In this document: one piece after another, positions 11,110-43,062 of the stretch
Position numbering within the stretch: the stretch's first letter is position 1
Layout of the letters: each line of letters begins with the position of its first letter
Assembly: GCA_030390025.1 (NCBI GenBank)
Contig: CM059432.1
Span: forward strand, 95,172,001 to 95,236,000
Reading direction: 5' to 3'
DNA length: 64,000 bases
Source of the DNA: Squalus acanthias
Lineage: Eukaryota
The notes under the pieces: model-generated
Seen by the model: only the letters and a program-made list of their open reading frames with translations
What the model was told of the DNA's origin: nothing
Databases searched by the model: none
Made by a program: the position numbers and the translations under genes

Positions 11110-13452
11110 CAAGGCCAGGGGGAAAGGGTAGCTCGGGGACCAGCTCCCTGGAGGGTGAGTTCTGCTGCACCCAACGTCTGAGTGCTGCATCGGAAGTTCA
11201 GACCGCTCTCATGCAGTCTCAGCTTGAAACCCCCCAAGCTCTGATTGCTGCCATTGTGGCTGGGTTTACGAGTGTCGACCGGGACTTGCAGGGTGTCGCA
11301 GCATCCCAGCAATCTGCCCTCCATCAGATTGCTAGGAATGCGGAGGTTCTGTCCCGGGGGAGTGGCAGTGGATCAGTGGAGCAGAATCCTGCTGTCCTCA
11401 CTCAGGATGACGGCATTCCTACTCCCACCTCTGCCACTCCGCCATTGCCCTCGCCGCTGTCTGTCATCCAGCCAGCCCAGACTGCTGCCGCCCATGCCGA
11501 GGTGTTACAGTCTACAGCCGGGCCTTCTAGGTTCACAGCTACTCGAGGTCGTCCTGTAAGGCCATCTGAAGTCTCCCCCATGGAAACTCAGCAGCCTTCC
11601 ACCAGCCATGCTGCAGCCACAGGAGGAGCACTTCGTAGGAGCATGAGAGTAGGAAAAGGCACATGAACAACAGGCACTAAGGGATCGCACAAGGGAGATT
11701 AGTTAATATTTTTGCTGTAAATATGTGTTCAGTGATTTTCGATAAATTTATAAATTTTGTTTGGAATGTTTGTTTTGTGGTGTCTCTCCTTTCAGCTTTG
11801 TGCCCAGGAGGATGCTGTCATATTCCGTGACAGAGGGATGGTATGATGGGGATGTGGTGAGCAATGGGGATCTGGGGTTTCATTCATTGGAATCGGAGAC
11901 TGATGAGGCGTTCACAGACAGCCCGTCTCCCTCGTCCTCCTCCTGAGGTGGTGCCACAATCTCTGGTGGCAAGGGCTGCGCCCTCATGATGGCCAAGGTG
12001 TGAAGCATGCAGCAGACCACCACGAAATGGGACACCCGCTCCAGCAAGTACTGGAGGGCTCCCCCCGAGCAGTCAAGGCAACGGAACCGTTGCTTCAGTA
12101 GCCCGATGGTCTGCTCGATGATGTTCCTGGTGGAAACATGGCTCTCATTATATGAGTGCTGGGCACGAGTGTTGGGGTTGCGGAGAGGAATCATGAGCCA
12201 AGTGCAGAGCGGATAGAACCTTGTCTCCGAGCAGCCACCCTCAAGTTTGTTGTGGTGGCTGGAAAATTGCTGGCACACCGGACTAACACAGGATGAAGGT
12301 ATCATGGCTGCTGCCAGGATAGCGGGCATTGACATTGAGGAATTGCTGGGCATGTTTGCACACCACCTGCACATTAAATGAGTGGTAGCCTTTGGGGTTA
12401 TGGAAGAGCTCAGGATTGTTATACGGCACTTGCAAAGTCACGTGTGTGCAGTCGATGGCGCCCTTCACCATGGGGAATCCCGCTATCTTGGCAAAGCCAC
12501 ATGCGCGCTCAGCCTGCTTCTCGCTGCTCAGAGAGAAGACAACGTAGTCCCTTCTCCTGGTGTAGAGAGCCTCAGTGACCTCCTGGATGCAGTGATGGAC
12601 GGCGAACTGGGAGATGTTAGCTATGTCTCCTGCTGCAGACTGGAAGGATCCACTGGCAAAGAAATTGAGGTGACCTTGACTGCCACTGGGAGAGCCGTGT
12701 TTGCCCTGCTCTCAGGCCACAGGTCTGGTTGCAGGAGGAGGCAGAGTTCTGTGACCACCTCCTTGGTGAAGCGTAGCCTCCTAATATACTGCTCCTCGCT
12801 TAAGTGGATATAAGAGAAGTGCTGTCAGAAGACCCTAGGTGGGTAAGGCCTCCTGTTGAGAGCACTCCTGGCACTCCTCCTCCTCCCTCTGCACGCATCT
12901 TCTCCCCTTCTTCGCTGCCTACGCTCCCTCTGCCGAAGATCCTGGAGCGCGAGGTCGACTCCCAGTACAGCCCCCATGACTGTGAGCAAAATAATGAAGG
13001 CGTTCTCCACTTGCCCCAACACTCCCTGTTACCTTAGAAGCTTGAAAGAAGTTAATAAAGCTGCTGGAGTTGCAGAAAGTTTTTACAGAGCCAGTCAAAC
13101 TGAACAAACATGTCAACTGCAAGTGATTGCTGATGATCCCTTTAAATATCACTGCTGGAGCCTCCTTCCTGCTTGTCAACGCTTGCTCAGCTCGTCATAG
13201 TTAAGGCATCAGTAGAGCAGCGAAATCCAATGTAGTAGATCGGGCGCCAAGTGAGCGTTGCACACTCACTGACATGACGATCTGCTTAATTTCAATCATT
13301 TCAGCGATCACTTCTATCGGCAACGCTGCCGGCCACCCCAAAATGGCGGCCATCGCGGGACCCACTGCCAGCTGGCGTAAGAGTGGCGGCTGCCATTATT
13401 TCGCCCGATTGTGGCATTAACAGGTGCCGCTAAACCCCCTAATTTCTAGGCC
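11110..13452 (-). mobile_element. Harbinger transposon: Myb-gene 3' part (+) convergent with a frameshifted transposase (-), TIR at 13452
   Basis: Terminus ctaatttctaggcc; transposase motifs listed in the next feature; + strand ORF 11043-11666 ends in ALRRSMRVGKGT, like other copies. Confidence 0.9.
11880..12977 (-). pseudogene. HARBI1-type DDE transposase, frameshifted
   Basis: RRPYPPRVF, GAIDCTHV, KGYHSFNVQVVC, ARYPGSSHD, NIIEQTIGLLKQRFRCLD and VVCCMLHTLAI spread across several frames. Confidence 0.93.
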
Positions 13453-13842
13453 AAAGTTTTTATATACCAGGTATACTGATAGAAACCATTGAATAGTTTT
13501 GTTTCTCCATTGCAGTTAAGACCTGTTAAGTAAAACTTTTTATGATGTTATAAAGGCATCTCTAATGTTCTGAATTTCCTCGTAAAATTATAAAGAAGCT
13601 TATTGCCTTCTGCATGTTTTCTAGGGAACTAAAGATAAGTTTTAAATAAATCTAATACTGATAGGTGGGGCACTGGATGGTGCAATTCCTTGTAACTCCA
13701 GCACCTGGGTTTGAATAAGCTTGAAACTGTGGGCGAAAGTTCTTTCTTGTCAGCTGGGAGAATCCACACAAAATGAGTTTGACAAGCTCCACCCAATTTG
13801 ATACCAAATTGACATTCTGACTCAGAGGCACCATAATAAAGA

Positions 13843-19429: not shown

Positions 19430-20560
19430 CGAATCTCTCTTGCAGCCAGCAATGTGTTGTTCTCTACTTCTTCAAGTTTCTAGTCCTCTTGCAGATGTCT
19501 TTGTTCCTGATGGGTCCTTCATCTTCAGGGTCTCCACGTGAAGGCCTCTTTGTAAAGCAAAGTTGTGCAGCAGGCAGAACACTACCATGCTCGTCGAGAC
19601 CCTCGCTGGACCATACTGCAGGATGCCCCTAGATCAGGCACCTAAAGTGCACTTTCAACATACCTATAGTTTGTTCAGTGATGATTTTGGTGGATGAATG
19701 ATCCTCATTATAGCATTGCTCAGCTGGGTTCCTGAGAAAGCAGACAGGTGTCATCAGCCAAGTCTGTAGAGGATAACTTTTATCTCCCAGGCGCCATTGG
19801 CAGAGCTGCCTTTCTGAGTTAAAAAGTGCTGGCACTGTGGACTGTCTTAAAGTAAAGATATTTTGGCAGCTGTCAGCAAAAAGAGCATTCACCTGCATGA
19901 TAGTCTTCTGCTGGTGGTAAGTAAGCTGCACATTGACAGAATGGTCTCCTTTTCTATTACATCTGGCCTTTGATAAAGGGAACATATATGGCCATATGGC
20001 TGCCACCTATGACTCCTTGGACCATTGGGGAATCCTGCCATCTGGTAAAATTGCAGTGTTCTGTCTGTTAGCACCAGTTGTTCAAGGGAAAGCTCATGAA
20101 ATTGCTAGTTCTAGAGAACAATGCATACTTGTCTTGCTTAATGCATCTGTGGAGAGCTGTTTGCCTTAGGTTATAGATATCCCTTGTGGCAGCCTAGAAT
20201 GACCAAATTCCATAGAAGTTAAGGGAAATAGTGAACTTTGTCCCAGTAGTAGCCTGGAATGACTTCAAGCAATCAAAGTTATCAGTGGCAGTTACCTTAA
20301 CAGTCACTGCCAGAACAGTGCATACAGCAGACATGTGCTGTAGGTCTGCTTGCAGCATATGATATTACTTGGTAAAAAGAAGCATCCCCAGGCACTGCTC
20401 TTTGGGTAAATGCAGATAGGAATACTTGGCCTGGTGAGGGGATATTGGCAGGTGGGTGCCTTGCACGTGTGGTACTGCCTCACAAACTTGATCTTCTTCT
20501 GTTGCTCCTCTTCTTCCAAGAAGCAAAGATAGAGGAGCATCCCCAATGGAAAACCCATAA
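19430..20560 (-). pseudogene. Degenerate Harbinger transposase
   Basis: RKGDHSVNVQL, LGDKSYPLQTWLMTP and ITEQTIGMLKVHFRCL in ORF 19629-20006. Confidence 0.85.
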
Positions 20561-21589: not shown

Positions 21590-23790
21590 GATTGGAGGCT
21601 TACTGGAGATGCTAGGTACACTGGGCTGTCAGCCAGCAAGCTTGCGCACAATGGCTCATAGCATGGAGGAGTCCAGCTCCAACTTGTGTCAAGGCTTTGC
21701 GTAGAGCATGGAGACCATTCTGTCTAAGATGGAGTAAGCAGTCAGCTTCATGAACAAGACAGTGGCACCCACCATGATGGAGCTTCTGACAGTTTCAATG
21801 GCAGCTCACACTGCGCCATGAAAGCTCAAACAGCTGCCATCTTGGCTTTAGGGCCAAGTGTTGACAGGGGCTTCCAGAGCATCACATCACTCCTGCACTC
21901 TGTTCTCATGCAGAGCCGTAGGAGTGCTGATGCGCAGTCCCAGGAGAATAGACTTGGCTCCATGGGAGAGGCACCTGCTGTCCTCTTTCAGGAAGACAGG
22001 ATGCCTGCCCCCCCCCCCCTCCACTGCCTACTCTGCCAGTTAGTGTTAGTGTTAGCTGGGCCGGACTGATCCCACTCATGCCAAGGCGCTATTGTCTTCA
22101 GTCAGGCCCAAAGCTGCTTGATGTCGCCCACCACGGCCATTTGAAGTGGCCTCAATGGAAGTGCTGCAGCCTTCCACCTCCCAAACTGTAGCCACTGGGG
22201 AAACAGTTCAAAGGAGCACTAGAATAGGTAAGTGAGCACAGTAGACAGACATTAAGGGCTTGTGCAAGGATAATTCTTAATTATTATTAATTATTTCTGC
22301 TAACTATTAGGCACAGATGGAATTGAGTTGTTGGATAAATTAGTTTTTTGTTTTGGATTTGGTGTGGTTTTTTATATTTGTAGTGAAATGAGGGAAAGAC
22401 CCATAAGGCTGGACTGAAGGGAGGCAATCGGATGGTGGTATAAGGACAGTGGTGATAAGAATTGCGGAACTGCTGATGTATTGGTGATGGGAGAGATGGT
22501 TCACGTGAAGTGCTCTTGGATGAGCTGCCCTTTGAGAGCTCTAGCAGCTAGGCGCTCCTGCTCTTCCTCATTGTCATGCGGTTCCTTCTCCTCCACCTCC
22601 TCCTACTGATCCTGCTGCAGTTCTTGCTGCTCAGCTGATGACAAGGGCTGGTCCCTCTTGATGGCAAAGTTATGCAGAATGTAGAAGACGACTACAAATC
22701 TAGATACTCACTCAGGGCTGTACTGTAAAGCTCCTCTGGAACGGTCCAGGCAATGGAAGTGCTGCTTGACTATGGCGACTGTTTGTTAGGAGATGTTTCT
22801 GGCGCCAGCAAACCTCTCATTGTTAGTCACCTCTGCACCTGCGCCTGGGTTCCTGACAGGAGTCATGAGCCAAGTCTGAAGTGACTACACTTCAAAAGTA
22901 CCTCATTGGCCGTAAAGCGCTCTAGGACATCCTGAGGTCGTGAAAGGCATTATATAAATACAAGTTATTTCTTGCTTTCAACTACTAGCCAGCCTGTAAC
23001 CTGACGGCCTGGTTGAAATAAAGATGGCACAGAGGATGGGTGCAGGTTGAATGCATCATGACGGCTGCAAATAACCGGGCACAGACCTGCATGATGCACT
23101 GCATGTGGTTGCAAACAAGCTGGACATTGAGTGGCATCGCTATCCATTCAGAAAGATGCCAGGCTGGTGAGGGGAGCCAAAAGGCAATGTGGGTGTAGTC
23201 TATGCCAGCTTGCCTCCTGGGAAAGTCTGCAATGCAGGCGAAGCCCAGTGCTCTGTCATCCTGATTCGCTCTATCTATGGGAAAAGAGATGTAGCTGTTC
23301 CTCCTGGTGTAGAGAGCCTTGGTGACCTCTTTGATACAGCGGTGGACTGCAAACTGGGAGATGCCACTGATGTTACCTGCTGCAGCCTGAAAGAAGCCTA
23401 CTGCATAAAAGTTAAGGGCCATGGTGACCTTGACACCCACACGTAGTGCTGTCTATGCCCTGGCTGGAGGCTTGACTTGTGGCTGCAGCAGGTGACATAC
23501 CTCTGTGACTGCCTCCTTTGTGAAGCAAAGGCACCTGAGACATTCCTCCTCAGTGAAGTTCATGTTCACCCTGAAGACCCGCTGTGGGTATGGCCTTCTG
23601 CACAGTGCGGTCCTCCTGCCTCTTTTCCCAGCTGCTCTTGTTCTCTCCTGTCTTCTTGGCTGCTGCCCCCCCACCATCCCGCACCCCCCCCCCCCACCCG
23701 CCTTCCCCCCCCCCCCCCCCCCGGCCATCTTCTAGCTCCCAAGACAGTCCTGCTAGACCACCTATGACTACAGTGAAACTGTTTTGAAAG
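21590..23790 (-). mobile_element. Degenerate Harbinger: Myb-gene 3' part (+, ~21.6-22.27 kb) convergent with transposase (-, ~22.5-23.77 kb)
   Basis: RRPYPQRVFR, VKVTMALNFYAVGFFQ, GISQFAVHRCIKEVT, GIDYTHI and LNVQLVC; + strand remnant similar to 11043-11666. Confidence 0.85.
22881..22975 (+). mobile_element. DeuSINE 3' fragment inserted in the Harbinger transposase
   Basis: gtgactacacttcaaaagtacctcattggccgtaaagcgctctaggacatcctgaggtcgtgaaaggcattatataaatacaag. Confidence 0.85.
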
Positions 23791-25560: not shown

Positions 25561-26060
25561 CATGGAGATGAGGCAGAAATGATGTCACGGTGCCTCCTGC
25601 CTCATTTTCCTCTATTTATAGTGGGTGCATGCCTAGTTGGGGGGGTGTCGGCATAAGTGGGTCATAGCCCTTGTGCCCTGCCCTGCTCAGATCAGACGAT
25701 GTGAGCAAGGCCTGGGTGCAAACTTGTGACCAGTCAGAAGGCAAGTGTTTTTGATCCACAGATGAGGATCAGAGCTTCAGGCCCTTTGGCTGCTGTTTTT
25801 TGGACACCCATCATTGCTGCTGCATGCCTGAAGTGCCCACAGCAGCGGTTGGATTTCCACCTGCATCTCCTGCCAAAGAGCTAGGATATATCAGGCCAAT
25901 TTAATTGACCTGAACCCACAAATATTGGTGGGATGAGGTCAGGTGGAGTGCGCTTTTGGTGCGGTGCGCCTGACTTGTGCCCCATTGGAGGGGAAGATAG
26001 GAAAATCGTTCCCACCATCTTTTGTACCATAACAATTCAAGTGAACTTAATATTAAGAAG

Positions 26061-28032
26061 TAAAAACAGAAAATGCTGGAAATCCTCAGCAGGTCAGCCA
26101 GCATCTGTGGAGAGAGAAACAGAGTTAACGTTTCAGGTCTGAAACGTTGGGCTGGATTTTCCGGGGGGTCAGCGGGCGCAATCAGTGGCGGGTTGGGTGG
26201 GAAAGTGGGGTTTTTCCCCAGCAGGTTGGGACCCCGCTGTGAACCCGCCGCCACGCGCCTTTCCCCAATGTCGGGTCTGTGAGCGCTGAGCAGACCCGAT
26301 CACAGCAGCGGGGAACCCAATTCAGGTCATTATGACTTTGTTTAGAGATGATAAAGAGTACATTTGAGCTCACCGTTTGATTTGACGTGCTTGCCCACGG
26401 GGTCCTCGCTGCTCGGGGATCATCTCTGTTAAGCTGAGGCGGGAGTTCAGTGGCCATTGAATCAGCTGTTGAGTTGACAGCTTCAAATGTAAAGTAAAAG
26501 CTCCCACCTTACAGAAATATCTTTCCTCAGCCACAAGCTCTTCCTCACTGCATTTCCACAACAGATTCACCATGCTGCAAATCTTTACACAAGTCTCCAT
26601 CCTGTCTGACCTCATTACCCCTCTCACCATTGACAGATCACTTCTGTCATCTCTACTTCACCTGCCATCGATTCCATCAGCATGGGTGCCCTGTATACTC
26701 TCTCACCTTGGTCCTCAGAATCCAAGCACGAATCAGCCCCAACACTTCATCACCAGGCACACCAGCAGCACCAACAACAACACCACCAACCTTCTCTGCA
26801 ATCACTTGATGCTGCACAGGACACAGGGCATCAGCACCCAAGCACATTGCTGCCCGGGAGGCCAGGGATGGCCTCACCATGGCCAGATTTACTTCACTTG
26901 ACGCTGGCTGCCACATGATGCGCCAGGTTGGTACCACCCCACACCAACACCATAAAGCATCCCTACAATGCCCAAGCCATTCCTTTCACATTCATGACCA
27001 TTGCAGGGGGAGGTGGGGGGGGGGAGAAGGTACAGTTATGTCTCACTATTCACTGCAACTCATGAAGCCACTTCCAAAGGTGCACACAAATCTGTGCAAG
27101 AAAGCAAAGTGTTGAAAATAAAGGTTTCAATGTTTGACACCACATTAACAGAAACTTTACATGAACATTGCATAAAACACCTAAGTGCCTACCCTTGTGT
27201 GTTGTTAGTTGGTATGATTGCACTAGGATGAGGGTGAGTGTGAGGGTTGGCTAGTGAGATGGGGAAGTGATAATGTAGATAGAGAGGGATGGGTGGAGGT
27301 GCAAAGTAAGTTGGTGTGAGTAAAGATGTGCAGGAGTGAGTAGGGAAGGCAGAGTGATGAGAGGCACAGCAGGATGAGGTTGAATGTGGCTTTGTTGTAT
27401 TAACGTTTTGTAATCTACTGAGATCATTGAAACGTTTGCGGCACTGCACCCAGATCCTCCTGACCACATCCCTGCTTGTGCCCTCCTCTGCAATGTGCAA
27501 CCAGGCTGTGTTGATCTCCTGGGGAGGTCTCTTCCACCCATGAGAAAGGAAGAGGACCTCTCTGCGTGCTGTGAATCCCTCCATAAACATATGGAGGGAG
27601 TCATGGGAGAGCCTGGGTGCAGCCCTGCACCTCTGTGTAGTGATTGTCAGTGTTTGCAGCACCTCAATGCTGTAGAATACTGACAGCACAGATGTCAAAA
27701 TAAAGTTGGCCACGGTCCCTTTAAGGAAACCAGCTGATGATGCATCATCAAATGATGTCACCAGACTCGCTTCCTCTAATTGGCCGGCAAATGCGTTGGT
27801 CGGGCTTAACAAGCCCAATCAAGGGAAATTCATTTCAAAGGCTGGAACGGAGACAGCAGCGGGGTTGGGACCCGCCACCGACGTCGTCCGCCATGGACCC
27901 GCCGAGGTCAGCAAAATTGCAGCTGTTAACTCTGTTTCTCTCTCCACAGATGCTGCCTGACCTGCTGAGTATTTCCAGCATTTTCTGTTTTTATTTCAGA
28001 TTTCCAGCATCACCAGTATTTTGCTTTTGTAG
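26061..28032. mobile_element. Miniature fold-back Penelope-like insert (two inverted pLTR ends, ~195 bp without the nested element) with 13-bp TSD
   Basis: 26061-26148 and 27925-28032 match the terminal repeats of the element at 29223-30416; taatattaagaag is duplicated at 26048-26060 and 28033-28045. Confidence 0.88.
26149..27924 (-). mobile_element. Non-autonomous Harbinger (Myb/SANT exon retained, transposase core deleted), nested in the Penelope insert
   Basis: Imperfect TIRs gggctggatttt / aaaattgcagct; 3-bp TSD gtt; APRLSHDSL...WLHIAEE...RIWVQCRKRFNDL in ORF 27189-27818. Confidence 0.88.
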
Positions 28033-29286
28033 TAATATTAAGAAGGTTTCTTAACTTTAATTAAAAATTAGCGAATCATTCTGTACAATGCCATTTCTGA
28101 GGCTTGCAGTCTTCTCTTCTTAGGGAGTAATCTATCGATTTTACTACATGGGATATCCCCTATTTACTTAAAACTTCCTGATCAGTCCTTACAGTCACTA
28201 CATTTTTGAAGTCTTTTTACACTTCAAGGCACTCTTTTCCTTTCCGTATATAGCTCATTTACTTGTGACACAGTTTTCCCACTTTCTAAACACTGTTCAA
28301 AAGCAATCACACTGAATTTAATAACATGTATTAACACCCTTGTTTAAAATGAACATTTCTTTTCACAGGTTGTGAATAATCTGATTTATATATGTCAAAT
28401 GCAAAATTATTGTAATTTAACTATGAATCATCTGGAAAATAAGTCTGTAAGAGGTCAGCTTCTTCCAAAGCTAATTAATTTTTCCTGTTGGTTGGTGCCA
28501 ACTTTGGTCACCAAAGTGATTTTCGTTGAAAGCTGTCGGAGGCCACTGTTTGACCTCTGTATAACTCCCTCACCTAGAAACCTGTTTCCTGTTTTAGAAG
28601 TTCATACACTGAATTCTAAACATCCTTTCACATTATTCAGAAATAAGGTAATGTTATACTGGTAAACTGTTCTCAACGGTCCAATCCATTGTCAACTATC
28701 AAATATATCACTGTAGTCTGTTGATTTCCTATTTAGACATTTATCAACGATGACAGCTGCAAAATTCTTGCCAGACTTGCTTCACAGCTCCTGCATTTAT
28801 GTAAATGGATATTATTTTTAATTTTAACTCAGCCCATATTTTATATATGCGGCACTTTATACATAATGTTGGGATTTTATAATTAGGTTGTGCAATTGAA
28901 CAATTTCCACACAATAAATGTGTAATCAATTTCCATAACACAACTCCTCAGCACAAACATTGACATTTATGTATTTGGGCTGCTGGTCCAAAGTATTAAG
29001 TGACCAGATACTTGAATTCCCAGTTGCTTTTAATTCACAGAATTTTGTGTATGGTTGTTGGTGGTCCCTGACTCATTACTGCTGGTTGGACCTGGAAGCT
29101 AAACTGTAAATAGTGTGTGGGAATTGATCTGCCGTTTGAACTTTTATGCAAAGAAGTTATTTGTGTGCAAAGACATACTTAACAAGAAGTTACCTTTAAG
29201 AACAAGTTATTAAACTACTTGAAATAACAACAGAAAATGCTGGAAATACTCAGCAGGCCAGGCAGCATCCGTGGAGAGAGAAACAG

Positions 29287-29323
29287 AGTTAACGTTTCAG
29301 GTCTGGGACCCTTCATCAGAACT
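29287..29323 (-). ncRNA. Minimal type I hammerhead ribozyme motif
   Basis: Minus strand reads agtt-CTGATGA-agggtc cca gacct-GAAA-cgtt-aact: conserved core, stem II, palindromic ACGT stem III and 4-bp stem I. Confidence 0.8.
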
Positions 29324-29492
29324 GGAAAAAGCTGGAAATGTAACAGATTTTAAGCAGGTGCAGAGGCAGGGAGAGGGGGGAGGGGAGGGGAGGATCTGAA
29401 GGAATAGTCTGTGCTAGGGTAGGAGGCAGGAAAGATAAAATGTTGCAAATGGGGATGGCAAAATCATACAGCCTGAAAAATGGGGGCAGGGC

Positions 29493-30239
29493 TTATAGTC
29501 TGAAATTGTTGAACTCGATGTTGAGTCCAGAAGGTTGTAAAGTGCCTAATCGAAAGATGAGGTGCTGTTCCTCGAGCTTACGTTGAGCTTCATTGGAATA
29601 GTGTAACAGGCCGAGGACAGAGCGATCAGAGTGGGAGTGAAGCGGAGAATTAAAGTGACAGGCGACCGGAAGCTCGGGGTCACCCTTACGGACTGAACGG
29701 AGATGTTCCGCAAAGCGGTCACCCAATCTGCGTTTGGTCTCCCCAGTGTAGAGGAGACCACATCGTGAGCAGCGAATACAGTATACTAAATTGCAAGAAG
29801 TACAAGTGAATCGCTGTTTCACCTGGAAGGAGTGTTTGGGGCCCTGGACAGCGGGAAGGGAGGAGGTAAAAGGGCAGGTGTTGTATCTCCTGCGCTTGCA
29901 CGGGAAGGTGCCGGGCGAAGGAGAGAGGGTGTTGGGGGTGATAGAGGAGTGGACCAGGGTGTTGCGGAGGGAGCGGTCCCTTCGGAATGCTGAAAGAGGA
30001 GGGGAGGGGAAGATGTGTTTGGTGGTGGGATCACGCTGGAGGTGGCGGAAATGGCGGAGGATGATCCGTTGAATGTGGAGGCTGGTGGGGTGAAAGGTGA
30101 GGACAAGGGGAACCCTATCGTGGTTCCGGGAGGGAGGGGAAGGGGTGAGAGCAGAAGTGCGGGAAATGGAACGGACACGGTCAAGGGCCGTGTCAACCAC
30201 AGTAGAGGGGAATCCTCGGTTGAGGAAAAAGGAAGACAT
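29493..30239 (-). CDS. Penelope ORF C-terminus: RT thumb/linker and GIY-YIG endonuclease (partial, open frame)
   Basis: FLNRGFP, RVPLVLTFHP, NLVYCIRCSRCGLLYTGETKRRLGDRFAEH, PVACHFN and EQHLIFRLGTLQPSGLN. Confidence 0.9.
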   Translation of the reverse strand: MSSFFLNRGFPSTVVDTALDRVRSISRTSALTPSPPSRNHDRVPLVLTFHPTSLHIQRIILRHFRHLQRDPTTKHIFPSPPLSAFRRDRSLRNTLVHSSITPNTLSPSPGTFPCKRRRYNTCPFTSSLPAVQGPKHSFQVKQRFTCTSCNLVYCIRCSRCGLLYTGETKRRLGDRFAEHLRSVRKGDPELPVACHFNSPLHSHSDRSVLGLLHYSNEAQRKLEEQHLIFRLGTLQPSGLNIEFNNFRL

Positions 30240-30281
30240 ATCTGCACCTGCTTAAAATCTGTTACATCTCTAGCTTTTTCC

Positions 30282-30318
30282 AGTTCTGAAGAAGGGTCCC
30301 AGACCTGAAACGTTAACT
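30282..30318 (+). ncRNA. Minimal type I hammerhead ribozyme motif
   Basis: agtt-CTGAAGA-agggtc cca gacct-GAAA-cgtt-aact. Confidence 0.8.
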
Positions 30319-31409
30319 CTGTTTCTCTCTTCACGAATGCTGCCTGGCCTGCTGAGTGTTTCCAGCATTTTCTGTTGTTACTTCAGATTTCCAGCATCAG
30401 CAGTATTTTGCTATTGTATTAAACTACTTGAGTTCATCCTCACTCGAAAAGGACTTTTTTACTATATTGTTTGGAACTATAAAGTTCTGAAAAAGGCTTT
30501 TAGATCTACTTCTCATTGGACATGCCATCTTTCTGCATTTATACGGACAGTCAGGGGTTGATTTTCACTGCCTCTGCCGAATGGGAAAAGAGTCGTACTG
30601 CTCCAGAAATCATGGTGCTCAACCTACCATCTCATTCTTGCTCCTGATCCATTTGCTGCCATTTCCAACCTGTCCTGGCAATGGGCAGCCAGAGCACCTA
30701 GCTGTTTCAGGTGGTGTCATTAAGGCATGCAAATCGGGGTTCTATGATGTAGGCAGGGCCCCAATGCAATTTTCATGTACCAATAAGGGGAACTTGCACT
30801 GCGCTCGAACCAGTGGTCCTTAAAAGGTCCTTTTGTGTGTCCCCCACCCCCACCTATCCTCCAGCTTGTTTCCAAATCATTTGAAAAAGCAAAGAAAATC
30901 AGAAATTAAGACACACTTTCACTTGCACTGAAAGAATCCTACTGACGCATATTGAGGAAGTGATCACAGGGACAACTTATTCTGGCACTCCTTTTAGAAT
31001 TCATTGAGTAAAGACTCCAGCAGATTCTATGAAAATCCATTGGTACACTTGGGTGATTTTATTACTTATACAGGTTTAGGAGCTACCTTCCAAATTCCCC
31101 AGTGAGCATGAAATGGTACGAAACCAATGATTCTGGTTGTTCTTGGAAGGAAGTGCTTGAGTGTTATATCTCAAGTAATGGAGAGGATTCCTGTGGGCAT
31201 TTATATCTATGGTGTACTCGCTCGACCAGCAATCATCCATAACAATTACTTCAGTGAGCATCTCATAATAATTCTTACTGTAAATTTAGTCTGTACGGTT
31301 TATGCTGCCTTTCCTCGTAAATATGGGAAACAAGTCCTACTTCTTATCTATATTTTAACCATGTACTAGAAGTTACTATTGGTGATGCCACTATGTGAAT
31401 GCTTATAGC

Positions 31410-31690
31410 CCCGAGTCAAATTCCTCAAGGTGGATAAGTCATCGGGCCCTGATGGCATGCACTGTAGGCTGTTGAAAGAAATCAGAGAGGACATGGCAGA
31501 GACTCTGGCCACAATTTTTCAGCCCTCCTTATATATGTAAATTGTACTCTGGTATTGGAGAGTAGCCAATGCTCAAGAAGAGAGAGAAGGATAAAACAGG
31601 TAGATTGCTCCAGCAGAGAGCTGGCAGAGACATGGTGGATTGAATAGCCTCTTTTTGTACTGTAAATTTCTATGGCTTTATGATTCTAAT
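31410..31690 (+). mobile_element. Degenerate CR1 fragments
   Basis: gtggataagtcatcgggccctgatggcatgcac...gaaagaa (KSxGPDGxH motif) followed by a CR1-like tail. Confidence 0.6.
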
Positions 31691-31794
31691 TGATTTGGTT
31701 AACTGGCGGTCTGTGCCTAGAAATTCCATAACACAAAAAAACTGGCACAGGCACCACTATGCAAGATATGTCCGTGCCCGATCAAAAAGCGCAC

Positions 31795-32062
31795 CATCAT
31801 CCCTTTTGTCTTTTAATTTCTTCTGCCTTCAATCCTAGCACAGGCCTTCCCTTTTGTTCTTTCCTCCCCTCCCCCCTCCCCCTGCCCCTGCACTTGCTTA
31901 AAACCTGTTACATCTCTAACTTTTTCCACTTCTGACGAAGGGTCGTCGACCTGAAATGTTAACTCTGTTTCTCTCTCCACAGATGCTGCCTGACCTGCTG
32001 AGTATTTCCAGCATTTTCTGGTTTTACTTCAGATTTCCAGCATCCGCAGTATTTTGCTTTTG
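31795..32062 (+). mobile_element. Solo Penelope pLTR with a degenerate hammerhead (31928-31964)
   Basis: Matches 30241-30416; CTGACGA-agggtc gtc gacct-GAAA-tgtt-aact. Confidence 0.85.
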
Positions 32063-32667
32063 TATTAATGTTTTTTTAAACCTGTGTGAGTATACTTTGC
32101 TTTAAAAAACATTTAAATATAACTCTTTTTCAAATTATTTCTGTGGCAAATAAATACCAAAACATCACAGTCCAAAACCCTTTGCTCAAGTTAGTTGAAT
32201 CTCAGCTGTCTTTGCACCCTCACTCTTCAAAATAATCCCTGGTTCTAGAGTTTGTGGCAATCTTGGAAATATTATCACAGTTTTTTTTTATCTAGCCCCT
32301 TAAGAATCTTGAATACTTGAATGATGTGTCTCCAGAGCCTTCTCTTTTCCCCTGTAAACAAACCCAGGCTCTTTAAGCTCTCCTTGTAGCTCATATGCTT
32401 TAAGCTAGGTATCAGTTTGGTTGCCGTTTTCTGCACTGTCTGGATATCATTGCTGTAATATGGTGACCAGAATTATACACAATGTTCCAGGTGGGGTCAT
32501 ACCAGTGCATTGTGCAGACTCATTATCACCTCCGAGGATTTGTGATCTATCCCTCTGGCTATACATCCTAACAGCTGGGCAGCTTCCCTCACTGCTGTGC
32601 AAACTACTCTGTTGGTTTCAATAAGCTATCCATCTTGTGGCCTTTCCCTTACAACACTGAAAATGAT

Positions 32668-34933
32668 CACCTGGAATTTCCATGGGTATTCTCCCGATCT
32701 CCTGCTGGAGCTTTGGTGGAAATTTGCAGAAAAGACAGCGTAAATGTCTGTTTACACTTTATCTACAGCGTTCCTGCCGGCCGTCTGCTGAACTAATGGT
32801 GGGAGATTTGGAGTGCGCTGCGGAAATTCCATCCCTAAGGATTTATGGTGGGGCTTCTGAGGAAGAGTCACGGTAGCTGTACCTGAGAGAAGTTTATTTC
32901 GGTGGAATGTGACTGGAAAAAAATTGCCGGTTTCAACTGGAGCTAACGGCCGCTGAAAATGGCCGCAACGTTAACGGGACAAAATTGGTCTCGGGGGGCA
33001 GGAGTTTGTTGGCGCAGCTCTTACCTTCTGTGCGACGCCATCCTGGTGGCGTTGCTGGAGGGATCCGGGACGAAGTTCCCGTCCAGGTACGGTGTTGGAG
33101 CTTCACACAGCCTCTGGGAGCGAGGCTGTGGAGCTCGCAATGAATTGTGGGCAATGAAGAGGTCAGAGAATTAAAGGGGCCATGCACACTGAAGCAGTAC
33201 AAAATAAAATCAAGTGAAACAATGTAGTTTTCAGCCCTTTCTGCCTTTAAAAAATATTTAACATTAAAAAGAAGTCCCTAATGTGAATATTCAGCTCTTC
33301 AAGCTGAATTCCCTTCCTAAACTCAACAAATGGGAAAACTGCCTCAGCACTAACACAAATGGCTCAGCAAGCCAGGGAAGGGGCACCCAGGGTCTCGCAC
33401 GCAGCACTCCAGCTTGGTGCAGGGGATCAACACTGCAAGAGAGGTCCTCTACCCACAGGGGCCAAGAGGCCCTACAGAAAGAACGATGTGGGAGTACATC
33501 ACCGAGGCCGTCACTGCCAGCAGTGTCGCCCCCACCACCTGGCTCCAGTGCCCAAAGAAGCTTCATGACCTGAGATCACTGGTCAAGTTAATTGAATGCA
33601 TCTTCAAAAGCCAGTCTCCTACCAACTGCACCACTAGCGTCACACACTGCTCAATGCATGACCCCCAATCACTCACCTACCAACAATCTGCACCAATCAC
33701 GAGGCACATTTCCCTTGAAGGAAGCGGTGCTGGCCATTGTTGGCAGGGGCATGGCTCAGCCCTTGGCCAGCGGCGGGGCTGAAAGGATACAAGATGCTGG
33801 TATCCTCATACATTATCTTCTTTCTAGCATGCACCTCATGCTTTCCTACCCTCCCGTCATCACAACTCCACCCTTGTGCCTTTCTCATTTCACACACCCA
33901 AGAAATGCAGCCTGCCCAGCCAGTGGGTCAACAAGAAGAGGGAGAGGAGAGTGAAGAAGAACACAAACACTCTCAGCCACCAGCTCCTCAAGGTCAACCA
34001 GCAAGGCCATTTGCAGTGTCCCCCACTGAAAGTCAGCAGTCTTCCACCAGCTATGCTGCAGCCACTGGAGTAGCACTGTGTGATATCAGTAGGGTAGGCA
34101 AAGGCACACACAAGACAGTCACTAAGAGAATGCATACGGGTGATGAGTTGATTTCTTGATGTCATATTGGATGGCGACATGTATATAGGCTGGATTTGAA
34201 AGTTTGCTTTGTGCTGGCTTTTATTTCAGCATCGTGGTCAAGAGGACGCTGTGATGGCCAGTAACAGATGGAAGGTAAGGTGTGGGACTAATGTTGAAAG
34301 AGGAATTGGGGTTGTAGTCACTGGGACCGCAGGTGGATGATTCCATCCCTGATGTCCCGGCTACAAAGGTGCTGTCTGGGTTGCATCCCTCTGCTTCCTC
34401 CTTTTCTGTGCCTACAAGCGAATGCTGTAAATGTAAAATGACAGCATAAAATGCTGGAAATACTCAGCTGGTCAGGCAGCATCTTGACCTGAGACGGGAA
34501 CTCTGTTTTTCTCTCCATGGATGTTGCGTGACCTGCTGAATATTCGCAGCATGATCTGTCTTCTCAAAGGCCTTCATTTACCATCCAAGCCCTTGCAAGC
34601 ATCCAGCAGCACTCCCTGCACAATTAAAAAACTTTTCACATCTATTGCAGCAAGCCACCACTTCAATAAAAAAAAATTAAATTCCAAAACCTTGTGTGTG
34701 TCCCTTTAAGAGGTTCAGACAGCGCCTCTGTCAGCCTGCTTGCATGCCAATTGACATCAACACGCTGCCATTTCTTCTTTTAGGGCGCTACCAGTTATTG
34801 GCAGTGCAAAGGGGGATACGAATATTGTGGCCACCGCAGGACTCGCCACCAGCTGGTGAAAGAGCGGCGGCCACCATTTTATCGCCATTTCATGGCGCTA
34901 CAGAGTGGCGGTAAGTAGATGAATTTCCAGCCC
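32668..34933 (+). mobile_element. Non-autonomous Harbinger with Myb remnant and an embedded Penelope palindrome (copy A)
   Basis: MWEYITEAV...TTWLQCPKKLHDL (33414-33590); end gaatttccagccc; Penelope pLTR-derived inverted repeat at ~34420-34552; left boundary tentative. Confidence 0.8.
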
Positions 34934-35241
34934 AATGACTTAACATTTAACTAATGAGGAAGTTACTAATATCACACAGCACAATTTCAAAATAATTATG
35001 ATTATCTTTGACTATATTTGAGCTCAGCATCTTAGAAATAATAGAAATAATAATACATTATTTATTTTTCCTAATTTTGGTAATATTATTTTAACAGTTT
35101 TCATCCCTTAAGTAAATGTTTTATAGTGTATTATAAGCTGTCACTACTTAGTCACTGGTACTGTAGTACTATAATTGTTTTTCAAGGTGGGTGAAGCACT
35201 GCCTTTTTCAGCTGGTCAATCTAATGACCTATTCTCACTAT

Positions 35242-37075
35242 TGCCTAGAAATTGATTACCTTAGCGTCGGCCATTAACGCTGGTTTTCTTGAAAAAATGG
35301 CAGCTGCCTCACTTCGGGCCGCTTCCAGCGCGGAACACGGCAGCCGCCATTATGGCAAGGGCCATAGCGCTGCCGTTGACAGCGCTGGCCTCTGAAATGT
35401 AAATTAGCAGATCATGACATCAATCGGCGTGCAACGCCTGACTTGATTCCACGATTGCTAACTTGGACATTTTCGCTCATCATTCAACTGGGTCCTAAGC
35501 ACGCACAGAAAAGCGTGCGTGAAGCAGCCCTGCAGCAACTCAGTCAGCACTTCTTAAATGGACACACACCTCTTTTAGGTAAGTTTGGATTTAAGCTTTT
35601 GGACTTTAAAAAAATATTTTATTGAAGTAGTGCTTGGTGCAATAGATGTTAAAAGTTTTTAAGTGTGCAGTGAGTGCTGCTGGATGCTTGCAAGGCTTTG
35701 GATGGTAAAGGAAGACCTCTGAGAAGACAGAATATGCTGGAAATACTCAGCTGATCAGGCATCATCCGTGGAGAAAGAAACAGAGTTCACATCTCAGTTC
35801 GAGATTCTGGCTGACCTGCTGAGTATTTCCAGCATTTTCTGCTTTTATTTCAGATCTCCAGCATCCAATCGCAGAGGGAAGAGGAAGAAGCAAAAGAAGA
35901 AGTCGCAGAAGAGGAAGACGCAGAAGAGGAAGAAGCAGAAGAGGAGGAAGCGGAAGGAAGAATGCAACCCAGACAGCCCCTTTCTGCCTGCCATATCCGG
36001 GATGGAATCATCCGCCTGCGGTCAACCACTGGCTGGGCAGGCTGGATTTCTTGGGTGTCTGAAATGAGGAAGCTGCAAGGGTAGAGTTGTGATGAGGGGA
36101 GGGGGGAAAAGCAAGAATTCCATGCTTACACCATGTGCACCTTGTAAATCAGAAGATATTGTGGGATGCGGGGAAGTGGGATGTGAGAAGAAGGATAATG
36201 TATGAGGATACAAGCATCTTGTATCCTTTCAGCCCTGCCGCTGGCCAAGGGCTCAGCCATTCCCCTGCCAAGAATGGCCTGCACTGTCTCCTCCAAGGGG
36301 TGAGGTGAAGCTAGGAATGGTACAGATTGTTGGTAGGTGAGTGATGGGGTGGGGGGACGCGGCGGTCGTGTAATGAGCAGTGTGTGAGGCTAATGGTGCA
36401 GTTGGTAGGAGACGGCTTTTGAAGATGCATTCACTGATCTTGACCAGTGGTCTTAGGTCATGAAGCTTCTTTGGGCACTGGAGCCAGGTCATGGGGGCAA
36501 CACTGCTGGCAGTGACGGCCTCGGTGATCTGGTCCCACGTTGTTCTTTCTGGAGGGCCTCCTGGCCCCTATGGGTAGAGGACCTCTCTTACAGTGTTGGA
36601 CCCCTGCCCAAAGCTGGAGTGCTGCATGCGAGACCCTGGGTGTCCCCTTCCCTGGCTTGTTGAGCCATTTGTGTTCGTGCTGAAGCATTTTTTTATGTCT
36701 GGAAGGCAGTTGAGCTTTAAGAGCTGAAGACTGCCATTTCGGAATTATTTTTAATGTTTATTTTTTTCCAGAAGGCAGTTGAACTCTAAGGGCTAACGAC
36801 TGCCTATTTTTAAATGATTTTTATTTTTTTGCATTTTAGAAGGCAATTCTCAATGACAAGCTAGCTTTAAGAGAATGCTGCCTCGCTCCAGGGACGCTAT
36901 GGCCACGTTACATTGGGCCTCCTGCCGAGACAACACTGCAGGTTTTGCGCTGCGCTAATGTAAATCAGCAGGCAGCACCAAAATACTGGTGCTGCCTGCG
37001 CTCTTTTGTGGGCGGCCGTTAACTTCAGCTCACGGTGACACCGGCAGATTTCCGGCCTAATTGAATTTCTAGACC
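35242..37075 (-). mobile_element. Non-autonomous Harbinger, same family (copy B), inverted relative to copy A
   Basis: TIRs tgcctagaaattga / ttgaatttctagacc; TWLQCPKKLHDL (36253-36492); Penelope-derived palindrome at ~35733-35865. Confidence 0.85.
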
Positions 37076-37751
37076 AGAAGCCTAGATAGATCTATTGATA
37101 GATGAGCACTTAATGCGTTTGTAGCACATTCCTCTGTCTGTGATTTTAACACAGCCGTTAATCCATTTATTTTAAATGGGTTAATGTTTTCACTAAAATA
37201 CCAGACAGAGGACTGCCAGTATGCATTCGTGCACTAATATCACCAACAGTAATTTCTAGGCTTACATATTGTGAGAGGATGCTTTGAAACCAATACCAAA
37301 GCAAAGCATGAAAAAGTACTATATTGTAGGAAGTAACTGATTGTCTCTCGCCTTTGTTTAATTACCAGACATAGCATCCAACTGAATCCACTGCTGTTCA
37401 TTTGTATACAATGTCTGAATACCTGATGGATAAGAATTCAGACAGATGTCTATTAGCCTTGAGAGATACCCAGCTGTTACAGGACTGTTTGGGATACACA
37501 TTCTGGATTGTAACCTTCAGTAATTATTTTCCACGCGAGTCCACGCCATTCTATTCATACTGAGATTAAGTTCAAACATAGTTTGGAATTACAAAACTGT
37601 TCTAGGGAGGACATGTTAGGTATCTGTGTCTCAAACTTTTGCTAGAGAAGTTCTGTGTCATCTTGTAGAATCTTGAAAGACTGTGAACCTTCCCGAATGG
37701 GCTTCAAGAGGATTATTAGCAACGAACATTTGTTGGAAATTTAGAATCTTT

Positions 37752-38551: not shown

Positions 38552-40750
38552 GGGGGGAATTTTAAACCGCCCACGACAGACGGGGGAGGGTCGACGTGAA
38601 ACTTGACGCCAACCTGCCGCAAACGCGCCTACGTCCAGTTTAACCGCGGTGGGTTTGGGGGCGTCCAAGTAACCCGCTCTAGAGAAGCGGGTCCATGATT
38701 ATATTATGTTAGTGAGGCTCAGTTCCTCAGATTTTGGCAGCCATTTAAATTTAACACTGGCGGGCTGGGTTTCCCAGGGCTCAGGGAACTCGGCAGCTAA
38801 AGGGAGGCGGGAGCAGCCAGATCCAGCAGGTGAGTGCTTTTTACAGCACTACCTGTGAGCCAGGAGGAGTCAGAGTGCTTTGCCCAGTTCCTCAAGCAAA
38901 CCTTCTGCCGCGATCTACCTCCCTCCCCGCGATTTTCCAACCCCCCAACTATGCCCCAATCTTTCCCTTCCACCCTCCCTCCTTGCTGCCGTGCTTTGAG
39001 CCCACCCCCCACCCCACCCACCACCACCATGTCCCGATGCTTTCTGATTGCCAGGGACCATCCCCAACGATAAGGCCCGAAACTGGGCGCGAGGATCACG
39101 ATGCGCAATCAACCCGCGCCCATTCAGAGGTCTGCAGGCAACACGCAAATTTCAGGCTGCCTGCTGATTAGCATGATTGTAGCGTTTAGCCCAGCGCTGA
39201 ACATGCTACTGAGTAGCCGAACACTCAGCAGGGGGCGGGCCCAAGTTCATGCGAGGCTAGCCCCAATTAAAGCTAGTCTGCACTACTTAAAAGGCAATCT
39301 GCACCTTTTAATGGGGAGGTGCCTCTGCCTGCAACAGGTGATTGAAGTGGCTGGGAAGACAGTGGACAACAAAGTGATAATGATGTCTAAACAGGGGAGA
39401 GAGCATGCACCTAGGTTCTCCGATGCAGCACTGGAGGCCTTGGTCTGGAGGTCAACTCCAGGAGAGAAGTCCTCTTTCCATAGGGGACCAGGAGGCCCTC
39501 CAGGCAACAGATCAGAGTGCAGTGGGAGCACATAGCCACTGTGGTAAATACCAGCAGTGTAGCCCTGAGGATCTGGATCAGGAAGAAGTTTAATGACCTC
39601 ACACGAGTGGTCAAGGTCAGTGAAATCATCTTCAAATACCGTATCCCACCATCTGCACCACCAACCTCACACAATACTCAATGCTCCACACTCACCTCCC
39701 AACAATCTCTACCAAACACGACTCAAACCTCACATTCATAGCTTCACCTCAACCACACACACTTACCACTGCTGCAAGCCTCACACCCTGAACACTCTGT
39801 CAGCTATTCAAACATGATAGGCATACCACCCAAACACATTGCACCACACTAATTGACACACTTACTTTTCTCTTGCAGAAAAAGGTGGTGCATAACCGGC
39901 GCCAGCAGAATTTAGCCGGCTGGGGAAAGGCTCGCCTGCATCACCAGACATTGGAGGAGATGGTGCTGGCCATTCTTTGCAGGGGCATGGCTGAGCCCGT
40001 GGCCAGCGGCTTGGCTCAAAGGATACAAGTTGCCGGTATCCTCATACGTTATTCTCATTTTCACATCCCACTTCCCCTCATCCCACAATCCCTTCTGATT
40101 TACAATCTGCACATGGTTTAAGCATGCAACTCTTGCTTTCCCCCCGTCCCATCACCACAACCTTACCCTTGTGCCTTTCTCATTTCAGATAACCAAGAAA
40201 TCCAGCCTGCCAGCGAGAGCTTCAACAAGAAGCGGGAGAGGAAAGTGAAGAAGAAGAAGAAACATGGTCACTCGATTTCACACTGCCAGCCACCAGCTCA
40301 GATACTGACACTCCGCGTACCTTAGACGATAGGTTAGATGCGGAATCTGCACGTGGAGAGTCACCGGGCACGAGTGGGCAGCAGCCAGGGTAGGGAGAAA
40401 GGGTAGCACAAGTGCCAAGGCCCCGGAGGGCGAGGTCGCACACGAGTTCCGCAGCACAGGATTCAGATGAAGACATCGCTGGGGCAGCCTACAGAAGGAC
40501 ACTGATGGGTATGCACAATGAAATGCTTGGTGTATTGCAGGCCTACCAGAGAGCGTGAATGCATTGTCAAGGAACATGGTGGAGTCCATGGTTGCCTCTT
40601 TCCTACTGCTTCCTCCTCTTCTGCTTCCTCCTTTTCTGCTTCTTCCTCTTCCTCCTCCTCCTCCCTCTGCGAGTAGCTTGTCCCTTTTGCTGCCTCTGCT
40701 CCATCTTCATATCATGCTGCAGCCCAAGGGGGACTGCAACTAGAACCCCC
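38552..40750 (+). mobile_element. Harbinger element(s): TIR-like start, three-exon Myb/SANT gene (39380-~40590) and deleted transposase remnant on the - strand
   Basis: REHAPRFSDAALEALV...QWEHIA...RKKFNDLTRVVK; GT-AG introns at 39616-39878 and 40036-40188; possibly two nested left ends (38552 and ~39074). Confidence 0.85.
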
Positions 40751-41354
40751 CCGGTGTGCAACGCTGATTTGACGCCAGCGCTGTCTTTTTCATCATCATT
40801 GCTGGAGCTAACGCCCTCTCTTAACCTCACACGGCTGAACATGCATTCAGCAACAGGAAGGACCCCCACCAACGCTATTTAATGGGATCATCACCAACTT
40901 TCAGGTAACTTGCCTTTTGATTTTTACTGGTGCTGTGTAAGTTTGTGGAAGTGTTTGGAGCTTTCCAGAGTTGTTTAAAGTTAGTGAGGTGACAGGGAGT
41001 GGTGCTGCAAGTGGAGAAGGCCTTGCTTCTGACTTCAAGGGTTCTGGTCAGATGACTTGCTCCCAGTCATGGGTGCTCTAGTTGTCATCCACCTTGGCCT
41101 GCAGCATGACAGGGAGATGGAGCAGAGGCAGCAAAGAAGAGAACAAGCAGAGGGAGGAGGAGGGGGAAAAGAGCTCTCAGCAGGAGGCCTTACCCACCTA
41201 CGGTCTTCCGAGAGCAATTCTCTTACCTCAATCTGAGCCAGGAGCAGTGTGTGAGGCATCTGTGCTTTACAAAGGAGGTGTTCACAGAACTCTGCTACCT
41301 CTTGCAACCAGACCTGCAGCCTCACTCCAGGGCAAGGGCAGTGCTGCCAGTGGC

Positions 41355-41818
41355 TTCTTTTTTCGTTCAAGGGATGTGGGCATCGCTGGCAAGGCTAGCA
41401 TTTATTGCCCATCCTTAATTGTCCTTGAGAAAGTGGTGGAGAGCCTCCTTCTTTAACTGCTGCAGTCCATGCTTCTTTGTAGTGGTTTGGTACAACTGAG
41501 TGGCTTGCTAGGCCATCCCAGAGGGCAGTTAAGAGTCAACCTCATTGCTGTGGATCTGGAGTCATATAGGCCAGACCAGGTAAAGATGGTGGATATCCTT
41601 CCCTAAAGGACATTAGTGAACCAGATGGGTTTTTATGACAATCCAACACTTTCATGGTCACCATTACTGACACTAGCTTTTTATTCCAGATTAATTTAAT
41701 TAAATAAATTAAAATTCCCCAGCTGCCTTGGTGGGATTTGAACTCACGTCTATCCAGATCATTAGTCCAGGCCTCTGGATTACTAGTCCAGTAACATAAC
41801 CACTATGCTACCGTACCC
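41355..41818 (-). mobile_element. tRNA-derived SINE with a LINE-derived 3' tail
   Basis: Head ggtagcatagtggtta (A box) and gagttcaaatccc (B box); tail gggcaataaatgctagccttgccagcgatgcccacatcc matches the LINE end at ~43612-43652. Confidence 0.88.
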
Positions 41819-43062
41819 TGTGAAGGTGACTGTAGCCCTGAGTTTCTTTGTGTCGAGATCCTTCCAGGCTGGAGCAGGCGACATCCGTCACATCTCCCAG
41901 TTTGCCATCCATTGCTGCATAAGAGAGGTGACAGAAGCTCTTTATGCCAGGAGAGGGGACTTCATTGTCTTCTCTCTGACTAGAGAGAAGCAGGCGGAGC
42001 GTGCATGTGGCTTTGCCAGGATAGCAGACTTCCCATGGTGCAGGGCTCCATCGACTGCACGCACGTGGCTTTGCAGGCGCTGCTTCTAAATGTTGAGATG
42101 TCTCGCTACCGCAAAGGTTTCCACTCGCTGAATGTGCAGTTGCTGTGCAACTATTCTTAGGACATCATGCTGGTGAAGGCCCAGTATCCTGGCAGCAGTC
42201 ATGATGCTTTTATTCTGCACCAGTCCGCTGCTCCCTTGGTCTTTGAGCCATCAAGACAAACCAGAGGGTGGCTACTGGGCGACAAGGACTATCCCTTGAC
42301 CAACTGGCTTATGACTCCGCTCCGCAACCCAACCACACATAGCCAGCATGCGTACAACAAGAGTCATGCTGTCACACGAAACATCATAGAGCAGACCATT
42401 GGGGTACTGAATCAATGGTTCCGCTGCCTGGATCGCTCTGGAGGAGTCCTACAGTACTCACCGGAGCATGTGTCTCAAATATAGAATCATAGAATCATAG
42501 GAAATTACGGCAAAAAGGAGGTTATTTGGCCATCATGTCTGTGGCCGAAAAAAGGCTATCCAGCCTAATCCCACTTTCCAGCTCGTGGTCCATAGCCTTG
42601 TAGGTTACGACACTTCAAGTGCATATCCAAGTACTTGTTAAATGTGATGAGTGTTTCTGCCTTTACCAATCTTTCAGGCAGTGAGTTCCAGACTCCCACC
42701 ACCCTTTGGGTGAAAAAAATTCTCCTCCACTCCTCTCTAATCCTTCTACCAATTACTTTAAATCTATGCCTCCTAGTTATTGACCTCTCTGCTAGGGGAA
42801 ATAGGTCCTTCCTTTCCACTCTATCTAGGCCCCTCATAATTTTATACACCTCAATTAAATCTCCCCTCAGACTCCTCTTTTCCAAAGAAAACAACCTCAG
42901 CCTGTCCAAAGAAAACAACCCCAATCTTTCCGCACAGTGAAAATTCTCCAGTCCTGGCAACATTCTCGTAAATCTCCTCTGTACCCTCTCCAGTGCAATC
43001 ACATCCATCCGGTAATGTGGTGACCAGAACTGTATGCAGTACTCTAGCTGTGGCCTAACTAG

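Follow-up and report, generated by a model that had tools for sequence, protein, structure and literature searches.

Two old Harbinger transposons of Squalus acanthias share a Penelope-derived fold-back in place of most of their transposase gene

Ricksha is a human composite DNA transposon that combines 79-bp terminal inverted repeats (TIRs) with the 3' part of HERVL with MLT2B (PMC1431705), so that a TIR element carries the 3' part of an ERVL (PMC1431705, PMC3531169); it is filed under MuDR in Repbase (PMC5753468; the reference list of PMC6446971 adds references). Non-autonomous Harbingers such as Harbinger3N_DR and mPing need two proteins in trans, a transposase and a Myb protein (PMC2836001). 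Penelope-like elements (PLEs) usually leave a 5'-inverted, truncated copy beside the insertion (PMC8557442), and one end of the insertion, but not the other, carries a 30-40-bp tail (PMC8557442, PMC11167929). No Harbinger was found in elephant shark, and other cartilaginous fish are held to call for examination (PMC9179366). Here we describe two neighbouring Harbinger copies, A and B, in a 64,000-nucleotide stretch of the Squalus acanthias genome (assembly GCA_030390025.1, contig CM059432.1, positions 95,172,001 to 95,236,000 of the forward strand; this whole stretch is the window, and positions below are counted from its first letter), both of which hold a fold-back made from the pseudo-long terminal repeat (pLTR) of a Penelope-like element.

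We consider it likely that A and B are old, decayed, non-autonomous Harbingers in which a single 138-nt 5'-inverted Penelope insertion, common to both, stands where most of the transposase should be, that they belong to what is probably a multi-copy family with the insertion as passive cargo, and that this family was moved by the proteins of intact Harbingers. Such a family would resemble Ricksha in being a TIR transposon with a captured retroelement 3' end inside, the two amplified together, but its carrier is a PIF/Harbinger, its cargo is a 138-nt Penelope pLTR fold-back rather than the long terminal repeat (LTR) of an endogenous retrovirus, and A and B keep Myb and transposase remnants. With Harbinger3N_DR of zebrafish, mPing of rice and their parents Harbinger3_DR and Ping/Pong they have TIRs in common, and their relatives in the window possess a Myb-like gene together with a DDE_Tnp_4 gene; unlike Harbinger3N_DR and mPing, they hold cargo from a foreign retroelement where the open reading frame (ORF) was lost, and their conserved TIR core is ~12 nt. 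From the Penelope side, the cargo is an inverted 5'-truncated copy like the insertions of endonuclease-bearing (EN+) PLEs with a hammerhead pLTR, but only the last 65-75 nt of the pLTR remain in each arm, and hammerhead core, target-site duplication (TSD) and tail end are gone.

An earlier note on this DNA had seen here a possibly undescribed cross-class hybrid. The kind is known from Ricksha, and the novelty extends at most to the A/B family itself: a real, old non-autonomous family, ordinary in kind. By title or abstract opening, a scope outside which lie Repbase Reports, most subscription papers and supplements, we found no Harbinger with Penelope cargo in the literature, and a retrozyme preprint (10.64898/2026.07.22.740005) contains neither 'Harbinger' nor 'DNA transposon'; the A/B family is probably uncatalogued in print.

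A shared fold-back at one position in two Harbinger copies

The fold-back is present in both copies at the same position, as first proposed, with boundaries 1-7 nt from those given earlier. In each copy 39-nt arms form a 39-bp stem around a 36-nt loop, and an unpaired 25-nt pLTR tail (extending to 35866 in copy B) follows, so what had been called a palindrome is an imperfect hairpin; Watson-Crick pairs are left at 30 of the 39 stem positions in A and at 33 of 39 in B. The two fold-backs align over 138 columns with 81% identity and zero gaps. Their arms correspond to the 3' end of the pLTR repeat of the window and are 78-94% identical to its five ordinary pLTR copies, which places a retroelement-derived segment inside the TIRs of both A and B. 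That repeat is Penelope-like, an inverted pair of it flanking a GIY-YIG frame at 29220-30422.

The cargo of A and B has a single origin. Both fold-backs have the same outer junctions, the same inversion point and the same loop length, and two letters common to both differ from all three of the intact pLTRs compared; because of these shared features, independent Penelope insertion is very unlikely. What we take, from its consensus motif, to be a hammerhead-type core stands at 30286, 31932 and 29319 in intact pLTRs and is absent from both cargos, and an Rfam search of 25900-37300 at E up to 5 returned six matches, all far under their gathering scores and none of them a hammerhead. The longer cargo arm ends ~20 nt before the usual end of the pLTR tail, and no Penelope TSD surrounds the cargo of A, while around that of B there is only a chance purine word. 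With hammerhead core, TSD and tail end gone, the cargo would move only as part of the Harbinger.

A and B read as non-autonomous PIF/Harbinger elements in their TIRs, the ancestry of their transposase sequence and their Myb remnant. The cargo lies, in both copies, between the transposase-side subterminal region and a C-terminal transposase remnant, just as the earlier note had claimed; read from the transposase-side TIR of B, the order is subterminal region, intron-like stretch, 5' untranslated region (UTR), hairpin and acidic remnant. The references are near-complete Harbingers, one at 11.9-13.5 kb and the other at 40.8-42.5 kb, in which the profile search matches DDE_Tnp_4 at E 4e-18 to 4e-11. 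The 51 nt upstream of the cargo align without a gap to the 5' UTR at 40997 (29/51; none of 20,000 shuffles as good), and this alignment ends 21 nt before the ATG of that copy. The region of A on this side of the cargo is 63% alike to the end of a near-complete copy at 13258-13465. On the other side, the remnant aligns to the C-termini of shark Harbinger transposases P0001 and P0008, where low complexity inflates the scores; its placement is independent of those scores because the DNA of A at 33981-34362 matches 11536-11928 (68%, E 3e-52). Remnant and 5' UTR homology together trace the lost gene to a DDE_Tnp_4 (HARBI1-type) ancestor. By comparison with the 11.9-13.0 kb copy, A and B lack ~1,030 nt of coding sequence from the ATG to the acidic stretch, and no strong match to a DDE core occurs in 32600-37200. 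Of the proposal that the cargo had replaced the transposase gene, the loss of ~1 kb of transposase at the cargo site holds, whereas insertion and loss may have been separate events.

The Myb side has decayed in both copies. Exon 1 had been described as kept; it is present in A and B, convergent with the transposase remnant, but decayed, and its Myb_DNA-bind_5 domain scores below the Pfam cut-off (E 0.018 in A, 0.017 in B). A relative of A and B in the window passes that cut-off (E 1.7e-5), and exon 1 of A matches the Myb frame at 27300-27719 (BLASTP E 2e-9), so A and B do have a second gene with a Myb/SANT-like domain despite the low domain scores. That A has lost the splice donor emerges from a sequence comparison with the copies at 39.6 kb and 10.5 kb. 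A different 380-nt Myb-side deletion, at 33941-34322 and unlike that of B, appears in contigs of all four sequencing runs described below (1, 3, 1 and 2 contigs), which shows that further deletion variants of the A/B lineage exist.

In a self-comparison, 33241-33926, 34316-34408 and 34392-34693 of A correspond to 36778-36026, 36034-35936 and 35892-35593 of B. Copy B has a 12-nt TIR core at 35242 and at 37075. In A the inner TIR ends at 34933, the outer one is degenerate and the outer end is uncertain within 32890-32945. The earlier note had the family begin at 32668, which does not hold: 32687-32890 is essentially single-copy, multi-copy depth begins after 32891 in contigs of the four runs, and A begins at ~32890-32945. 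We likewise rejected 32668 as a family end on its single-copy depth in the runs. The interval 32668-32835 looks like a distinct relic of 168 nt whose ends resemble TIRs; in the runs it is single-copy, and organisms B and D have it too. No empty site of A or B occurs among the 15 of 2,941 contig joints listed.

Table 1. Features of copies A and B, by position in the window.
Feature	Position	Strand	Remarks
Copy A, decayed non-autonomous Harbinger	32908..34933	+	Myb on +, transposase remnant on -
Myb exon 1 of A	33359..33587	+	frameshifted, splice donor lost
3' Myb part and region between the convergent genes	33927..34317	+	A only; deleted in B (390 nt)
Transposase C-terminal remnant of A	34318..34421	-	stop codon kept; acidic stretch cut by a private deletion
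pLTR fold-back of copy A	34422..34559	none	arms 34445-34483 and 34520-34558
5' UTR, intron-like stretch, subterminal region and TIR of A	34560..34933	-	donor deleted in A
Spacer between A and B, single-copy, 308 nt	34934..35241	none	orthologous in organisms B and D
Copy B, decayed non-autonomous Harbinger	35242..37075	-	Myb on -, transposase remnant on +
GT..AG intron-like stretch of B, transposase 5' UTR, putative	35579..35670	+	compared with the copy at 40.9 kb
pLTR fold-back of copy B	35727..35866	none	arms 35728-35766 and 35803-35841
Transposase C-terminal remnant of B	35867..36024	+	acidic 15-nt tandem repeat 35878-35956, ~20 more codons
Myb exon 1 of B	36439..36668	-	frameshifted, one stop, splice donor lost

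The chimeric junctions at the locus and beyond it

Evidence from outside the window comes from the assembled contigs of four public runs, picked from 21: X2 (organism A), X6 (organism B), X9 (organism D) and X13 (organism E). Contigs of X2 are 99.8-100% identical to the window here and apparently come from its own species, so X2 does not count as independent evidence. The contig comparison lists 32 of 358,499 pieces. We call junction 1 the boundary between Harbinger 5' UTR and pLTR, and junction 2 that between pLTR tail and acidic transposase remnant; a contig piece counts as crossing a junction only with 31 letters. Joints from 34484 to 35811 (9 contigs), which are fold-backs without visible context, were left out of the counts, and the lack of loose ends at junction 1 among the 24 of 13,653 rows listed was given no weight.

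The locus is an old one. In organisms B and D, orthologous contigs (records 18 and 28) cover the inner TIR of A, the spacer and the inner end of B with 92% and 91% identity, and the locus was probably present before organisms A, B and D split; spacer depth is 11.3, 32.2 and 8.9 (contig records 12, 18 and 28). Junction 1 also occurs outside the range of orthologous divergence. Record 30 of X9 spans 35634-35883, with junction 1 and both arms, at 39 differences in 253 (~85% identity) and with 3 gaps across the two cargo arms, and is more diverged than the X9 orthologue of the locus, at 41 differences in 477 (~91%; Fisher p 0.006). Junction 1 and both arms are also contained in record 7 of X13, which shows 39 differences and 14 gaps. 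A joint in X9 that leads from the pLTR arm into the Harbinger 5' UTR matches A at 15 of its 22 letters, B at 16 and an ordinary pLTR at 6, and has a depth of 484 against 8.9 for single-copy sequence, or 54-fold. If members lie 8-12% from their consensus, 54 unchanged 31-mers would, as a rough estimate, imply some 700-2,800 copies.

The Harbinger parts that flank the cargo are multi-copy: in three runs, summed depth in the bins beside it is ~3,300-7,400 times single-copy, a figure to be read as an order of magnitude because summed depth does not measure copy number. At a point 5 nt into the pLTR arm, depth keeps pace with that of the Harbinger bin (ratio 0.63-0.82, coefficient of variation 0.11) more closely than with that of the pLTR bins (coefficients 0.36 and 0.41), a weak comparison in each case with n = 4. 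The interiors of A and B, at 81-88% identity, are no closer to each other than unrelated copies are: 27 other listed contig pieces, a set that excludes 5 own or orthologous ones, match A or B at 80-88% with a median of 84%. Fourteen high-support near-fixed sites were compared; eight rows (seven columns) of them fall in the shared part, and A and B agree at none of the seven. Contigs with B-type termini and other flanks exist (records 13-15 and 19-21), and those contigs stop before the hairpin; in records 19-21 matching starts at 35243, in one of them after 1,633 unlike letters. Within the window the junction motif matches only A and B, and it has no match in JGI metagenome contigs, which is uninformative for a vertebrate repeat.

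On these sequence comparisons the chimera is probably not a local duplication. Shared breakpoints, derived letters and a junction in related species that is more diverged, or present at high depth, bear out much of the earlier proposal that the hairpin was captured once and then amplified as cargo.

Several observations weigh against a dispersed family that shares the whole A/B structure. No third complete copy with flanks or TSD, and no third junction-crossing copy from the window's own species, is among the 32 pieces listed. Record 7 of X13 is indistinguishable from an orthologue, because no long orthologous X13 piece is among those listed. Outside A and B, junction 2 is crossed among the listed pieces only in record 30 of X9 and by 17 letters, below the 31-letter rule, and record 7 of X13 has 50 unlike letters there; with crossings of junction 2 so thin, the transposase deletion may not be common to all carriers. 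At 5 of 22 letters A and B have the same base where the high-depth X9 joint differs, from which they appear nearer to each other than to that variant, either as a sister subfamily or through shared local history. Copy B lacks a matching TSD, its flanks being TAT and AGA, and A has flanks AAT and AAT only with a degenerate outer TIR at 32908 that was picked post hoc.

The termini add a further difficulty. At 34701-34933, 35242-35559, 32890-33240 and 36780-37075 the two copies are only 63-72% alike, against the 81-88% of their interiors, and a simple one-master family leaves such dissimilar ends around a similar interior unexplained. The inner termini are 66% and 70% alike to the reference copy at 13 kb, at least as like it as each other, and depth at B-type inner termini is ~1/15 of that in the bins beside the cargo. 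CpG decay was rejected as the cause, since transversions outnumber transitions among the differences. The pattern suggests a common interior with several kinds of ends, which may reflect replacement of the ends, rapid divergence or conversion at the locus.

Origin of the cargo and competing readings

The arrangement would follow from a short series of steps. A heavily truncated Penelope copy with an inverted end would have inserted ~20 nt upstream of the transposase ATG of one Harbinger. A deletion, then or later, would have removed ~20 bases from the end of the pLTR tail, a TSD if there was one, and ~1 kb of transposase, ending in the acidic C-terminal stretch; GCAG at both of its ends may have guided it as microhomology. 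A deletion that started in the pLTR tail fits the longer arm, which ends ~20 nt short, and the lack of a remaining TSD. With TIRs and subterminal regions kept, the element could then have been copied in trans by the transposase and Myb protein of its relatives; both this mobilisation and the copy number of the A/B family are what we infer from the comparisons above. The lineage would have diversified in its termini and Myb-side deletions, A and B would have inserted 308 nt from each other in a common ancestor of organisms A, B and D, and all parts would since have decayed neutrally.

A first alternative, which we regard as unlikely, changes the order of these steps. The cargo would first have spread within the 5' UTR of elements that still possessed the transposase ORF, and A and B would be one later deletion derivative. 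The hairpin would then not have taken the place of the gene, and the family would be defined by junction 1 only. Outside A and B, junction 1 alone is properly bridged, the 50 unlike letters of X13 record 7 lie just past the hairpin, and a hairpin-free N-to-C deletion at 40590-40750 indicates that such deletions arise independently of Penelope. Against this, the pLTR tail leads into the acidic remnant in both A and B, record 30 of X9 follows B for its 17 letters past junction 2, and no sequence with hairpin plus ORF was seen among the listed pieces.

A purely local event strikes us as more doubtful still. Here ectopic gene conversion or an inverted duplication would have carried the hairpin interior from one Harbinger to a neighbour of another subfamily, leaving the chimera confined, or nearly so, to this locus. 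The close spacing of the inverted copies, the contrast between interiors and termini, the missing TSD of B and the 5 of 22 letters that set A and B together apart from the high-depth variant all agree with such an event. It is opposed by the greater divergence of X9 record 30 relative to the orthologue, by the 54-fold depth of the X9 joint, by the absence of sharing at the seven near-private columns and by an A/B identity equal to that of unrelated copies. Conversion between A and B could, for its part, have occurred on top of a multi-copy family.

That the hairpin was kept for a function, transcribed from the transposase promoter after a 5' UTR intron as double-stranded RNA against the Penelope terminal repeat, we hold to be highly improbable. 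The hairpin stands directly after the intron-like acceptor and would fold stably (z-scores of -5.5 to -6.7; none of 200 shuffles equal for any of the four strands), but any recent inverted duplication would be stable, and the donor is deleted in A. Selection on the stem was considered and rejected: the comparison of A and B revealed no compensatory change, and the stem (13 differences in 78) is kept no better than loop and tail (13 in 60; p 0.51). The cargo gives no sign of function and its changes look like neutral decay. It is similarly far-fetched, if by a hair less so, that a Harbinger lineage might have made its promoter and 5' UTR intron into a hairpin-RNA cassette against Penelope, spread it to hundreds or thousands of sites and changed its termini to stay mobile; if true, one transposon class would arm itself or its host against another. 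Independent Penelope insertions at a preferred site in separate Harbinger copies, for which the extreme abundance of the pLTR repeat might speak, are the least credible reading, given the ends, inversion point, loop length and derived letters common to A and B and the two other inverted Penelope insertions of the window, which have quite unlike breakpoints and TSDs of their own.

With passive cargo in an old Harbinger family as the preferred reading, the view of how either class moves is unchanged unless small RNAs from the hairpin appear. The family would nonetheless be a useful entry in repeat libraries, as automatic annotation would split its copies into Harbinger and Penelope and count one insertion as many. 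As a clean marker, the shared junction could date a Harbinger lineage in several related species, and the shared interior with dissimilar termini allows the idea that Harbinger subfamilies replace their ends to be tested.

Other Penelope and Harbinger segments of the window

The Penelope insertion at 29220-30422 is a textbook case, 5'-truncated and with an inverted pLTR. It has a 15-bp TSD and a 252-codon open frame whose GIY-YIG match (E 4e-4) falls just under the cut-off. A second Penelope fold-back at 26057-28039, with a 13-bp TSD, has a Harbinger inside it (~26149-27923), which interrupts it on the stem-III side of the hammerhead-type motif and so reverses the nesting of the cargo.

At least nine Harbinger-derived segments lie in the window. 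The transposases of the window find their best protein relatives among shark and ray models named 'putative nuclease HARBI1'. The shark models among them, P0001-P0014, are up to 70% alike to the window transposases and have the same acidic C-terminal tail, with P0001 at 74-83% to the copy at 11.9-12.8 kb; they are database gene models, none of them tied to A or B as a helper. The near-complete Harbinger at 10135-13452 has the 5' part of its Myb gene (10135-10958) inverted relative to the remainder. At 39000-42500 lies a Harbinger complex in which the cargo-free N-to-C transposase deletion (40590-40750, minus strand) sits beside an inverted, interrupted transposase (41069-42480, plus strand), and two more decayed Harbinger transposases are found on the minus strand at 19544-20424 and 22636-23593. 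The letters immediately outside the TIRs are TTT, TAT, CAT and GTT at 13452, 10958, 20975 and 26149, and ATT, TAT, AAT and TTT at 34933, 35242, 45326 and 49974; all eight triplets end in T, unlike the TAA/TTA reported as the TSD of mPing.

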